Origin: Xylographa opegraphella
Taxonomy: Eukaryota
Reading direction: 5' to 3'
DNA length: 64,000 nucleotides
Assembly (NCBI GenBank): GCA_022813865.1
Contig: JALDZX010000010.1
Span: 434,001-498,000 of the forward strand
Shown piece by piece: positions 55,172-63,217 of the stretch. The notes under the pieces are model-generated. The model saw only the letters and a program-made list of their open reading frames with translations. It was not told the DNA's origin and did no database searches. Both the position numbers and the translations under genes were made by a program. The first letter of the stretch is position 1; the number at the start of each line of letters is the position of its first letter.

Positions 55172-55212
55172 AGGTCCGTCCCTGGGTGGCGAGAAACCCG
55201 GCGTGGCGAGAA
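55172..55212 (+). repeat. Left TIR of the pogo-like element
   Basis: Matches the reverse complement of 63178-63217, preceded by TA, with an internal GGCGAGAAA direct repeat. Confidence 0.8.
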
Positions 55213-55801
55213 AATCAATAGGTACATTGACTTTAAGCAATTCAGACTCTGTGCACATATTGATATTTCCCACAGTTCTATATAAGTCCTATACTATGGC
55301 CACTTCTAAACACTTAGAACAGATTTAACCAAAAAATTACGATCACATCGCCGCCATCGTGCCTAGTTTGCGGAGAGCCTCTTTCCTTAGCGTAACACAA
55401 TTCCTTCGCCACAGCACCACTGTCGAGCTCTTATCACTCCTGGTACCCCTAAAAGAGCCTCATCCGAGCCTCAGAATCTTACCACTATACTGGGAAGTTG
55501 TCATCAGCCTTGTGGCTGCTATCGCACGCAAGTTCATGCGAAGTCGCCACGTCGATCGATACCTCCAACCGAAGCGATCACTCACAGCGGTTAGCGCGAA
55601 ATGGTTCCATACATCCGAAATACTAATTACGGTGTATTTTATTTATACGAGTAACGTAAGCCCAGCACTGGAGCCCATAACCATCAGGCCTGTGGCTGCG
55701 CGGAGTCCCGTTCTGCTGACGCTCGGAATATATAAAAATCCGACTCCGAAACAGTAGAGCCGCTAGCGTATGCGGCTTTACCCTTGGACTATTGTTGCAA
55801 C

Positions 55802-56080
55802 ACCGTTTTGCTCCGGCCGGCAAGCAGGGGTACGAATGCGAGTCTTATCATTACAGCCACAATTACGCCACAGACCAAGGCACATGAGTTGCCACTGTAC
55901 TTGGTGGTCCAGGGTATATATGCTTAGCGCGGTATACATAGTTCTGAGACATTTGGTGTGTGTGATAAGAACTACTGCGATATCCTTAGTGTCGCGCTAA
56001 GCATATTTACCCTGAACCACCAAGTACAGACCAAGGCACGTGATTTGCCGCTGTACCAAAGAGTACCTCTATCAGAGTTT
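55802..56080 (+). repeat. Left arm of an internal ~120-bp inverted repeat (interrupted by a MITE)
   Basis: 55802-55899 (ACCGTTTTGCTCCGGCCGGCAAGCAGGGGTACGAATGCGAGTC...GCCACTGTA) and 56027-56080 are near-identical to the reverse complement of 60262-60384. Confidence 0.9.
55900..56024. mobile_element. 125-bp MITE with 32-bp TIRs, TA-flanked
   Basis: CTTGGTGGTCCAGGGTATATATGCTTAGCGCG ... CGCGCTAAGCATATTTACCCTGAACCACCAAG (30/32 complementary). TA at 55898-55899 and 56025-56026. Confidence 0.85.
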
Positions 56081-56452
56081 AAGGTACTGCCGACCTTCGC
56101 TACACGTATCTCCGCTACTTGACTATATAGGTCTCCCACTACTACAGCAAGCAGTCTAGGTATTAGCCATAACCCCTTCTATCTTAACGCTGTCCCTTCA
56201 TTTCCAACCCAGCTTTTGAAACACTCTATGTCGTTTTGAAATTCTTGTGGGCTTTAGAGCAATACATTGCGCTGTGTCTTGAGATGTGGATAGCGAGTGT
56301 GTGCCATTACCTCTTATATCTAGGGATACATTACTCTTGCTTCCTGAAGCCTGTAATGCCCATAGCCGTTGAAGTGAAGAGTAGTGGTCCATACATGCTT
56401 GAGTAGTTGGATGATCTGGTCCAAGCTTCTCTTGTTAGCCAGCGCAGGCTCT

Positions 56453-60384: not shown

Positions 60385-60538
60385 CGAAGGCGAAGTCGCA
60401 CTTGCTAGCGGCTGTACTTATGGTGACTGCTAGATATATCTCTAAAGAGGTATCTGCTTTATTGCTTCCTATATAGCCTGCGCAACTTCTAATATAAGAT
60501 TACCCCTTGAAGCGCGGTACTTGTACTTTAACACTGTC

Positions 60539-62634
60539 CTATATCATCCGCGCCACTGGGGCCCTGAATGGCTCTGTCATCTGCGCCACTGTGACCTTCC
60601 ATGGCTCTGCCACCTGCGCCCTCTGTGGATCTATCATCTGCGCCGCTGGTTCTCTATATGACTCTGTCGCCACTGGCAACCTTGCTGGCTCTGGCACTTC
60701 GCTCATTTGCATCTCTGGCGCTTCGCTTATCCACACCTCTGGCAGACTCGCCTCTGGTTCTGGCGCTTCGTTCATCTGCATCTCTGGCGAACTCGCCTCT
60801 GGCGCAGGATTCTTGCGCGGACGACCGCGTTTTCCTTTACCCGCAGTAGGTTTCCCTTTTACCGTAGCTTTCTCTTCTTTCGCAGCAGCACGCTTGGCTC
60901 GTGCCTCACTAAGGTCTTCATAGCTCATCACCTTCGCCTTCCCTAGGATCAATGACTTGGTCGATCGGCGAACTTTGGCTTCGCCGTTTATCTTAGCCAA
61001 GGGCCGATTTTGATCCTGAAGAAGGGCACATTCGGCAAAGGATATTCGGGCAGCACTTGCGATCTTCTGTACGTGTCTATATAGGCGCTGTTTGCTGATC
61101 TCATCAAGCCCATGAGCATCCTGTTTAATCAGCTTGTGTATTGGCATGAGACCCTCTGCTGTCACTGGCGTTACAGGTGTTTGCGGTACTTTGTCTTGCA
61201 ACCACATTACCTTATTAGCATTCGGAACGGGAACGGGAACGGTAAGCTGAGCTGGGGGCCTCGCTGTATGTCTGAGTACTCTCTCTGGATTGAATGGAAA
61301 CAAACCAGTTGCCGCCCACCCGGCTAGGATATTCCTTTTCGTCAAGGCCCTTTCCCTTGCAGGGTTGTATAGAGATGTGAAATGCTCCTTGCTAACTACA
61401 TCTACACCTCCTCGATATAGTAGTTCAACCTGGTCGCGATAGGCTGCTTTCAAGGGTGCGAAGACTCCGACGTCACAGGGCTGGAGCTTGTGAGACTAGA
61501 TGGTAGTACAAATTAGCAGATATTTATAAAAAGGGTTGAAGAGCGTTGTCAGGATGCCTAGGGACTTTTTGCTGGTTAGAACGCCGGGGTGAGGAGGGCG
61601 TGGGGTAGGGATAGTGAAGGTGAGAGGGCTTAAGGAGGGGGTATGAGAGATACTAGATCCTCGTTCTTCAATCGCGACTCAGACAGTCGGTCTTAAACCC
61701 CCAAGTTAAGTGAAAATCTGCCATCAGCTTGTATGTGTATTACGACTTACCGTGTGAGATGGGAGACGGCATAAGATGATGTTGTTTTCAAAGCAAAACT
61801 CCAAGACCTCGAGCGTCTCGTGTGTCCCGAAGCCGTCCATTATTAGAACCCGTGGTTTCTGGTTAGCCCGTTCTTTGGTTTGGGGATCAAATACACGCGT
61901 AAGCCACTCCAAGCTAATCTTGGAGTCGTTATACCCATTTTCGGAATGCCCATAATGCCATCCGGGGGTCGGGTATGTGGTCCAGTTGCTTCGGTGGGTT
62001 GAAGCTGGCCAGGTTATAAGGGGGAGCAGCCGCCTGCCGTCAGCACTGATGCATTCAACAGTAGTCACCATTGTCCGCTTAACACCCGCGCCTCTGTAGT
62101 CTCGCAGGTCATCCTTACCTATAAGGACTTTAATAGAACCGAGCATGCTTAGCAAGACTCCCGTCTCATCCATATTATAGGTGTTTTCTGGCAGAATAGC
62201 CAAATCCTGATCCTGTAGCACCTTTCCGATCAGTTTAAACCACTCTACAATCTTATCATATATGTTATTCCCATGTCGTTTCCAGTCAATCGCTCTAATG
62301 GTTTTAGCTTAAAGCCCCGAGCCCAGTTCTTACCCGGAGGCTTGATTGGTTTATTCTTTAATCGGTTGCGGGCGACATAAAAGGCTAGCGAAGGTATAAA
62401 CTTTATGCGCACTGGCTGCCCGAGATTAGACAGTAGTAACAAGAATTGAACGACAGCTTTCTCTTCGTCTGGAGTCAGGTATTGCTGGCTTTGAGCCTTT
62501 TCCTCTATTGAGCGTCGTCCCTTGTCACGATGATGGAGCGTTGAGAGAGGAACATCGCCCCGTTCTGCAAGAGTAGCGTATGTCCTAGGCACGTCTAGAG
62601 AGGCTTGCGCGAGCACCTGGCTGGCTCGGTCCAT
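60539..62634 (-). pseudogene. pogo/Fot1-type DDE transposase with one intron and a frameshifting deletion
   Basis: HTH (VPLSTLHHR...QQYLTPDEEKA...GKNWARGF), frame break at ~62310, then AIDWKRH...YNMDETG, LIMDGFGTH, LPSHT|SHKLQPCDVGVF (intron 61496-61750, GTAAGT..CTAAT..TAG). AT-hook-like GKRGRPRK in the tail. Confidence 0.9.
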
Positions 62635-63177
62635 GTTAGCGATTGTGGTAACGAGTGGCGGATGGCAAGAGGCCATGACACCAATAATGGGCGCGGACGC
62701 TAAAACTAGTGGACACATGACTGTCGAAGTTTCTAGAAGAACGCTGCACTTCATTTTAATTCAAATAGTACAGAGTATAATACAAGTGGCTAAATGAATA
62801 ATACTCGCCTATGTAAGCGCGCTAAATCTATATGCCAAGACACCGAGCGTTCCCTTGCACGGAGAAACTTTAAAGTGCATGCTCTTTTAAGTGTTACGCA
62901 TCTTTAATGCTTGCAAATATATTTTTCTTTAATAGGATTATTATCCTAATCCTCCGAAATTTGAAAATATATTAATAGTCGCGGTAGAGCAGGGGGGTAA
63001 AGCTAATTTAGTCCTAGACGTCGTGAACGGAACGATTGACAGCATGACCAAGATCGTCGTATTCTTCTTATTGCAAACTGGTTTCCTGAGGAGAAATGCG
63101 TAAAGGACATTATTATACTGGCTATAACTTTATAGGCTTACAAGGAAAAGGCTTAAGATGTCTGAACAAAAAAAAAA

Positions 63178-63217
63178 TTCTCGGCACGGGGGGTTTCTCG
63201 CTCACAGGGACGCACCT
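63178..63217 (-). repeat. Right TIR of the pogo-like element
   Basis: Reverse complement matches 55172-55212; followed by TA. Confidence 0.8.

Follow-up and report, generated by a model that had tools for sequence, protein, structure and literature searches.

A putative composite pogo/Fot1-type transposon with an NLR/effector gene pair as cargo in Xylographa opegraphella

Fungal repertoires of NOD-like receptors (NLRs) turn over fast, and the gene trees of these receptors are at odds with species trees. To our knowledge, the vehicles named so far for the spread of NLR genes are the giant Starships, introgression, and horizontal transfer of an unspecified kind. Starships are described as giant transposons that can hold NLRs as cargo (PMC9156397), among them Tangerine in lichen-forming fungi (PMC13486527, PMC13449251), and ToxhAT is described as a 14-kb hAT-type transposon with ToxA in wheat pathogens (PMC6737239, PMC12506042). 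At the level of genes, the closest described systems are the NLR/amyloid-effector pairs NWD2/HET-S, PNT1/HELLP/SBP, and HET-eN/SESA/SESB (PMC5485727). Here we describe a segment of 8,046 nt, positions 55172-63217 of a 64,000-nt stretch of DNA from Xylographa opegraphella (hereafter the window; assembly GCA_022813865.1, contig JALDZX010000010.1, positions 434,001 to 498,000 of the forward strand), which lies between TA-flanked inverted repeats and contains a pogo/Fot1-type transposase gene, an NLR gene, and a hydrolase gene.

We consider it probable that this segment is one copy of a composite, cargo-carrying element of the pogo/Fot1 group (Tc1/mariner superfamily), mobilised by pogo transposition. 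Its outer repeats would enclose the transposase gene of the family together with ~5 kb of passenger DNA that holds a cognate NLR/effector pair. A pogo transposase made in cis by the once intact gene, or in trans by other family copies, would bind both outer repeats, excise the whole 8 kb, and reinsert it at a TA, which at this locus lies 16 nt before the start codon of a glycoside hydrolase family 76 (GH76) gene. The parts of the segment and its immediate borders are listed below, in window coordinates.

55170..55171, no strand: TA at the left outer flank, a putative target-site duplication (sequence; other family copies in organism B, one of the organisms compared below, start matching exactly at 55170).
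55172..55241, plus strand: left terminal inverted repeat, core ~41 nt, possibly ~70 nt (pairwise alignment, blastn, window scan, terminus of the related locus L008).
55242..55368, no strand: left subterminal segment, present in the window copy and unjoined to the cargo in B or in the air metagenome X2 (contig alignments).
55369..55752, no strand: non-coding segment, ~95% alike in the B/X2 copy, either pogo 3' region or part of the cargo; blastx of 55369-55752 gives no protein match.
55753..56080, plus strand: left arm of an inner inverted repeat, called X here, interrupted by a hairpin element (self-comparison).
56201..58684, minus strand: NLR with an N-terminal amyloid-type motif, NB-ARC, DUF7779, and five 126-nt tetratricopeptide repeat (TPR) units (Pfam scan, blastx vs relatives).
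58685..59129, no strand: divergent promoter region shared by NLR and hydrolase (head-to-head layout, also in loci L001, L002, and L008).
59130..60233, plus strand: SesB-like alpha/beta hydrolase with a C-terminal motif like the NLR N-terminus (start approximate; alignments to relatives).
60262..60418, minus strand: right arm of X, 29 nt past the hydrolase stop (self-comparison).
60539..62640, minus strand: pogo/Fot1-type transposase, HTH_Tnp_Tc5 plus DDE_1 (Pfam scan, blastx).
63148..63217, minus strand: right terminal inverted repeat (alignment, blastn, window scan; B and X2 contig matches end at 63219).
63218..63219, no strand: TA at the right outer flank (sequence); the GH76 ATG lies 16 nt further, at 63236.

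When positions 55170-55212 are aligned with the reverse complement of 63178-63219, 37 of the 44 columns are alike (four mismatches and three gap columns, the outer TA counted), and blastn of the two element ends gives 83.7% identity over 43 nt. Within the 64-kb window each end has its partner as its sole match, with a score of 50; elsewhere scores do not exceed 25, and the maximum in 100 shuffles is 28. A first, sequence-only reading of this DNA had seen imperfect terminal inverted repeats bordered by TA around 8046 bp with a transposase, an NLR, and a hydrolase, and this layout is confirmed. The terminal repeats are probably about 70 nt long, since the two ends resemble each other again near position ~70 and over 67 nt the left repeat has ~80% identity with the end of the L008 element. 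Outside the repeats, the flanks have only the TA in common.

The transposase matches DDE_1 (PF03184) in two parts, at E 3.5e-21 for profile positions 1-113 and at E 8e-4 for positions 112-177, with a 255-nt insert between them. Its match to HTH_Tnp_Tc5 (PF03221), a helix-turn-helix of the CENP-B/Tc5 type, is weak (20.2 bits vs a cutoff of 22.2); precomputed domain assignments place PF03221 in many relatives of the transposase. By blastx the gene is 55-83% identical to five of five full-length relatives, and relative to all five its frame changes at ~62308, where seven to eight residues are missing. The insert (61496-61750) has intron-like ends (GTAAGT ... TAG) and splits DDE_1 between LPSHT and SHKLQPCD; the family copies in X2 and L008 are without it, with 61495 joined straight to 61752, and it is either a gained intron or a small insertion. 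The family is very large (1,456 proteins at E <= 1e-20, and 223 longer ones at E <= 1e-40), and its full-length transposases measure 560-646 amino acids. Because many of these sit on contigs of 2.3-2.8 kb, ordinary family members appear to be about one third of the size of the present element. The initial statement that fungal Tc1/mariner-pogo elements are typically ~2 kb long with only a transposase describes the relatives, apparently one-gene elements of 2.3-2.8 kb, and not the window element of 8,046 nt with its two further genes: DDE_1 and terminal repeats at both ends are features that it shares with the pogo group, and the compact, transposase-only form is not.

The NLR open reading frame (ORF) in the window (56453-58684, minus strand) is 100% identical to the NCBI protein MCJ1282866.1, annotated from Xylographa opegraphella. 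The full NLR model (P0002) matches TPR_12 (E 2e-70), NB-ARC (27.9 bits vs a cutoff of 23.5), and DUF7779. The in-frame stop at 56453-56455 is premature: relatives such as P0123-P0125 read through this position, and in blastx the relatives continue for 84 amino acids, to ~56201, at 85-92% identity. The five TPR units are ~95.6% alike, and their repeat pattern at 56366-57121 is of the 'high internal conservation' type reported for fungal NLRs. At the nucleotide level the same interval consists of five tandem 126-nt (42-amino-acid) units, 92-96% mutually identical, at which the contigs of all runs compared below break.

The hydrolase lies head-to-head with the NLR, ~450 nt away. It has a nucleophile elbow of the GHSLGG type, and its matches to PGAP1, DUF676, and DUF7379 are all sub-threshold. 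A 45-nt intron is located at ~59235-59279, and a 1-nt deletion after 59486, seen against four of four relatives (L001-L004), shifts the frame just before the catalytic serine of GHSLGG. An odd frame in exon 1 was considered as a second lesion and rejected, L001 and L003 having the same frame. The sole nearby ATG of this exon (59120-59235) is out of the conserved frame, likewise in L001 and L003, and the true start is perhaps in an upstream exon.

A motif, QQG[ST]GNAGRDI..., is common to the NLR N-terminus and the hydrolase C-terminus, with a local score of 80 against a shuffle mean of 24 (z = 11.2, 500 shuffles); the motif regions match no Pfam family at E <= 1. Since adjacent genes that share a motif between NLR N-terminus and effector C-terminus are what is described for such systems (PMC5485727), we predict an NLR/amyloid-effector pair, which by analogy would signal through an amyloid fold. 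The receptor stands beside its effector and the short motif is shared; the genes are not intact. All three genes of the segment carry lesions, namely the premature stop in the NLR and the frameshifts in hydrolase and transposase, so the window copy is decaying and non-autonomous, and the cassette can no longer be called 'complete', as it was at first.

For presence and absence in other genomes, Logan contigs of four public runs were compared with positions 50001-64000 at >=80% likeness: the window's own genome (X1, which may be its source data), organism H (a related species, from the same study as the likely source of the window), organism B, and the air metagenome X2. In all, 20 runs contain part of the stretch; the other 16, with 17-25% of the sampled words, a share that the whole block at about 96-97% identity would fit, do not enter the evidence. 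In X1 the element is single-copy, with a depth of 163-170 vs 162 in the flanks. Two further X1 contigs match the left repeat to 55211 and then diverge, and there are a few transposase fragments at 85% identity.

In H, a 59,890-nt contig is colinear with 52555-53175, 53890-54308, and 63321-63593 of the window at 83-87% identity, GH76 coding sequence included. The last two pieces are separated by 1,078 nt in H, compared with 9,013 nt in the window and ~966 nt predicted for a clean empty site. Because of this spacing, ~7.9 kb, the repeat-to-repeat size, must be absent at the colinear H site, and the NLR pair is therefore not resident there. An NLR pair at the syntenic position without the transposon, which the sequence-only reading had named as speaking against its proposal, is thus not what H contains. 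No solo repeat is seen on the colinear H contig. The NLR and hydrolase do occur elsewhere in H, matching 56858-60272 at 96.8% identity (109 other letters in 3,415). This copy runs on to 60618 and then diverges, and the transposase copies of H are only ~80% identical. Between window and H the cargo (96.8%) is accordingly more alike than the host flanks (83-87%).

In organism B, a 6,308-nt contig spans 56998-60903 and 60876-63219 with 127 and 90 other letters (~96.5% identity), linking the cargo, the transposase, and the right terminus in a second organism. The last matching position is 63219, the A of the outer TA; the 41 letters after it are unlike the window. X2 has the same linkage in two contigs with the same variants as B; the match again ends at 63219, followed by 28 further letters. 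The window flanks are at most ~1x in B in one of the 11 bins of 50001-55137, and no match at >=80% lies past 63219. At the other end, three B contigs start matching exactly at 55170 with flanks that disagree (agreement 0.53), which makes 55170 a terminus of the family. Both termini of the window element are thus boundaries of a repeat family in other genomes.

These comparisons also bear on the age of the block. The junction between cargo and transposase predates the 3.5% divergence between the window and B copies, a divergence that is itself far younger than that of the flanks between window and H (13-17%). This implies that the block moved as a unit at least once; in the window's genome its limits are precisely the two TA-flanked repeats. 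Under the composite-element reading, the unit would have arrived at this site after the split from the H lineage, or would have been excised in H; the near-identical copies in genomes with unlike flanks would reflect recent spread between fungi; and the window copy is now decaying through its three lesions. The two outer repeats would be the ends used in transposition, and the unit may well have been transferred horizontally.

The distribution of related proteins bears on this spread. The 90%-identity cluster of the NLR has six members, comprising the window protein, two proteins from Teloschistes-labelled metagenome-assembled bins, and three further NCBI proteins, and its members are 88-90.6% identical in amino acids to the window NLR. 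Further relatives at 88% are also labelled Teloschistes, and the next matches fall to ~74-76%. As a control, two of ten other window proteins were found by exact look-up, both of them singletons in their clusters; the control rests on these two, as the other eight had no exact match, probably owing to differences between the intron-less models used here and the annotated proteins. The NLR cluster and, in H and B, the difference between cargo and flanks together point to a recent horizontal movement.

A metagenome scan with the hydrolase returned 15 loci, in one of which (L008) the transposase was also found, by tblastn with two transposase pieces and by blastn. L008 reads, in order, NB-ARC-TPR NLR (minus strand), hydrolase (plus strand), family transposase (minus strand), and a terminus ending in TA. 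Its transposase is ~70% identical in nucleotides to that of the window and its hydrolase 42% identical in amino acids, and its NLR and hydrolase have a matched motif of their own (z = 8.3), cross-pair comparisons with the window motif giving z below 0. That a different cognate pair stands here in the same order and orientation suggests a recurrent association within this transposon family. X was not detected in L008, and positions 1-6000 of the contig, including the gap between hydrolase and transposase, contain no second repeat (best score 24 vs a null maximum of 28).

Several observations weigh against a composite element. The TA at both sides is weak when taken alone, at roughly 1 in 16 per side. 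The data are Logan contigs and metagenome bins, and named metagenome-assembled genomes may be mis-binned. The empty site in H is resolved only to ~100 nt (1,078 vs 966 predicted), so that the search for an empty allele yielded the absence of ~7.9 kb and not a join at a single TA. The high-identity match of B and X2 does not reach the left end: it sets in at 55369, 197 nt further in, after 678 and 60 unlike letters, respectively. The left repeat is present in B only on other family copies, two contigs covering 55201; on one the match (82%) spans 55170-55312, and on the other it is confined to 55170-55239, roughly one repeat length. The B copy is thus either left-truncated or interrupted, or has a different left end. 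(A B contig joining 55239 to 55423 was dismissed as unreliable, with 24 letters on its shorter side.) None of the four runs yielded a second copy bounded by both repeats at a new TA site; the search for a second cargo-bearing copy thus produced cargo, transposase, and right repeat together in B and X2, without the left repeat or a new TA site. An intact transposase of this lineage did not turn up; the protein matches go up to 84%, and none reaches 90%.

The other hydrolase loci add further difficulties. L001 and L002 have the head-to-head pair without pogo or terminal repeats (hydrolase 83-84% in amino acids, NLR 73-74% in nucleotides), and no inverted repeat brackets the L001 pair, which has 10 kb of flanking sequence on either side. 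The NLR-hydrolase pair therefore also exists in a resident form that is not linked to a pogo element. The L008 contig begins inside the NLR, its left end lying beyond the contig, and the L008 hydrolase is no closer to that of the window than unlinked ones are (42% vs 37-40%). L008 could thus be an independent adjacency, a coincidence in a transposon-rich NLR neighbourhood. As a separate observation, L001 contains at 4962-5321 a second, diverged hydrolase paralogue (42% amino acid identity), ~5 kb from the pair on a 123-kb metagenome contig. Finally, a 96% inverted repeat, X, surrounds just the two cargo genes, which suggests another vehicle or mechanism for the cargo.

X is best described by its pairing. 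Positions 55802-55900 pair with 60286-60384 over 99 nt at 96%, and the pairing goes on between 56026-56080 and 60262-60316; weaker similarity extends as far as 55753 and 60418. Between the arms lie exactly the NLR and the hydrolase, the left arm being ~120 nt past the ancestral NLR stop. X may be a nested non-autonomous element that brought the pair into a ~3.1-kb pogo, or a by-product of capture. The left arm also contains a 125-nt TA-flanked hairpin element resembling a miniature inverted-repeat transposable element (55900-56024), with inverted ends of ~37 nt; a 29-nt direct duplication (55871-55899 and 56027-56055) lies around it. The interval 55847-56024, and with it the hairpin element, is missing from B and X2, where 18 other letters stand instead, and contig ends in organism H (run X16) suggest a copy of the hairpin element at the TA 60271-60272, in the right arm of X.

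An alternative built on X is that a ~3.1-kb pogo (55172-55752 plus 60419-63217) served as a landing pad and that an X-bounded non-autonomous element (55753-60418, repeats of 125-165 nt) moved the pair. The pogo repeats would then be uninformative on how the cargo travelled, and the composite may later have moved whole. The tight bracketing of the two genes by arms that are 96% identical over 99 nt and paired over 55 nt more favours this view, as does the outer edge of the right arm, which lies 120 nt from the transposase stop, where the 3' untranslated region of a pogo would be. X was acquired in this lineage, since the L001 and L002 pairs lack it. Against such an origin, the outer edges of X show no target-site duplication; X is not multi-copy in the four runs compared, its depth equalling that of the composite; and no X-bounded unit was seen outside a pogo context. 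The H copy, moreover, keeps 60419-60618, which is pogo sequence, beside X, and L008 has the same gene order without detectable X. We regard this alternative as unlikely.

A second alternative, to which we give a similarly low probability, is that the locus is an incidental neighbourhood, with a left-truncated pogo beside an NLR pair, a solo end as the repeat at 55172, and spread by introgression, a Starship, or another large segment. The divergence of B and X2 from the window at 55369, inside the left end, speaks for such a neighbourhood, as does the size of the pogo family (1,456 proteins at E <= 1e-20). NLRs with high internal conservation are reportedly enriched for flanking transposable elements (PMC13449251), and Starships are described as carrying NLRs, lichen fungi included (PMC13486527). 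In an Alternaria genome, too, a pogo transposase and a TPR NLR have neighbouring locus tags. The dimensions of the insertion argue otherwise: the extra DNA relative to H is ~7.9 kb, the repeat-to-repeat unit and no larger element, and the colinear H contig has no solo repeat. The two repeats are also correctly inverted, unique in 64 kb, and both TA-flanked, and no tyrosine-recombinase ORF occurs among the ORFs of 54000-64000, nor did any of the seven element ORFs scanned against Pfam match one.

Vertical inheritance with loss in H, the near-identical copies coming from a shared contaminating or co-habiting fungus, is very improbable. Several holders do come from lichen or air metagenomes, or from metagenome-assembled bins, in which the contigs are short (3-6 kb). 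The copies differ, however, by ~3-3.5% from the window and so are not carry-over; the B contigs have depths of 64-82 like the other B contigs compared, although the window flanks are absent at >=80%; three NLR cluster members are on contigs of 29 kb, 1.13 Mb, and 1.99 Mb; and the boundaries fall at transposon termini, a coincidence that deletion would not produce.

We therefore return to the composite pogo/Fot1 element as the favoured reading. The original proposal that a small element with terminal inverted repeats mobilised an NLR module is partly supported: it gains from the absence in H, the B/X2 copy, the family nature of both termini, and L008, and is held back by the left end of the other copies. 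A bolder version, which we put forward only tentatively, is that this pogo/Fot1 lineage is a dedicated shuttle of different NLR/amyloid-effector pairs, spread horizontally among distant lichen-forming and other ascomycetes, whose module may favour retention of the element in an addiction- or incompatibility-like manner or add to nonself recognition. In Alternaria gaisen, the adjacent tags AG0111_0g6188 and AG0111_0g6189 correspond to a family transposase and an NB-ARC-TPR NLR with a Ses_B Pfam domain. Both proteins (P0287, P0103) are encoded on the same 2,116,911-nt contig, the transposase being 65% identical and having 39 cluster members, and the adjacency may be due to chance.

Turning to the neighbourhood, the gene beyond the right end is assigned to GH76 by a Glyco_hydro_76 match (E 1.3e-12). 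The element ends 16 nt before its ATG (63236) and parts the gene from its former upstream region. Frameshifts are not widespread in the assembly, given that the long ORFs to the left are intact and encode ordinary proteins, such as PIP5K, an ESCO acetyltransferase, a sterol glucosyltransferase, an ARID protein, and an aspartyl protease. At 5811-9245 on the minus strand, a 1,144-amino-acid ORF has a C-terminal CHAT (caspase-like) domain and is a candidate cell-death or immunity gene unrelated to the element.

If the composite reading is right, a compact, TA-inserting DDE transposon would offer a simple route for moving a receptor and its cognate effector together, as a module that could function on arrival. 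Elements of the Tc1/mariner type, usually thought of as single-gene parasites, could then carry ~5 kb of functional cargo in fungi, and small transposons may move immune gene pairs between fungi. The ends of the present element are defined, a relative has an empty site, and several diverged copies exist. Cargo-bearing class II elements (ToxhAT) and Starships with NLR cargo are already known. A full-text literature search, which covered the main texts of papers outside subscription, found no pogo/Fot1 or Tc1/mariner element described with NLR cargo, in keeping with the sequence-only reading, to which no described case was known.

Among known systems, the Fot1/pogo transposons of fungi share with the window element DDE_1, terminal inverted repeats of ~40-70 nt, and a TA next to both ends, and hundreds of them have transposases at 55-84% identity to that of the window. 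The window element differs in being 8,046 nt long with two unrelated host-type genes, where the family is seemingly ~2.3-2.8 kb with one gene, and in that the window scan shows no transposase-proximal left repeat near 60400, where one would be expected. In compound transposons and macrotransposition, as with bacterial IS-flanked elements, Ac/Ds macrotransposons, and Pack-MULEs, outer ends mobilise the intervening host DNA. The window has, in contrast, one transposase gene and one short end fragment, and no second full element flanks the cargo. hAT elements make 8-bp target duplications; the window transposase is of the DDE_1/pogo type and the flanks share only TA.

As described for ToxhAT (PMC6737239, PMC12506042), the window element is of class II, has terminal inverted repeats and passenger genes, and is near-identical in different fungal species. 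The superfamily is pogo and not hAT, and the cargo of ToxhAT is described as a virulence effector, that of the window being an NLR/effector pair. Like the pairs described in PMC5485727, the window pair consists of adjacent genes in which the N-terminal motif of the NLR recurs at the C-terminus of the effector, here a predicted lipase/hydrolase of the SesB/SBP type. It differs from the descriptions there in that its motif is not assignable to the HRAM, PP, or sigma classes and in that the pair lies inside a transposon.

With Starships the element would have in common the mobilisation of NLRs, implicated horizontal transfer also in Lecanoromycetes, and boundaries recognised against the empty sites of relatives (PMC13486527, PMC13449251). 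'Pogo' and 'Tc1' do not occur in the Tangerine paper (PMC13486527). A listing of the ORFs in 54000-64000, with a Pfam scan of seven of them, reveals only the transposase, the NLR, the hydrolase, and the flanking GH76 gene, and no captain-type ORF in the element. Starships are described as measuring tens to hundreds of kilobases and as moving by a tyrosine recombinase 'captain', whereas the window unit measures 8 kb and has a DDE transposase; if the bolder shuttle reading holds, it would be a small-scale, DDE-driven counterpart of the Starship-borne NLRs.

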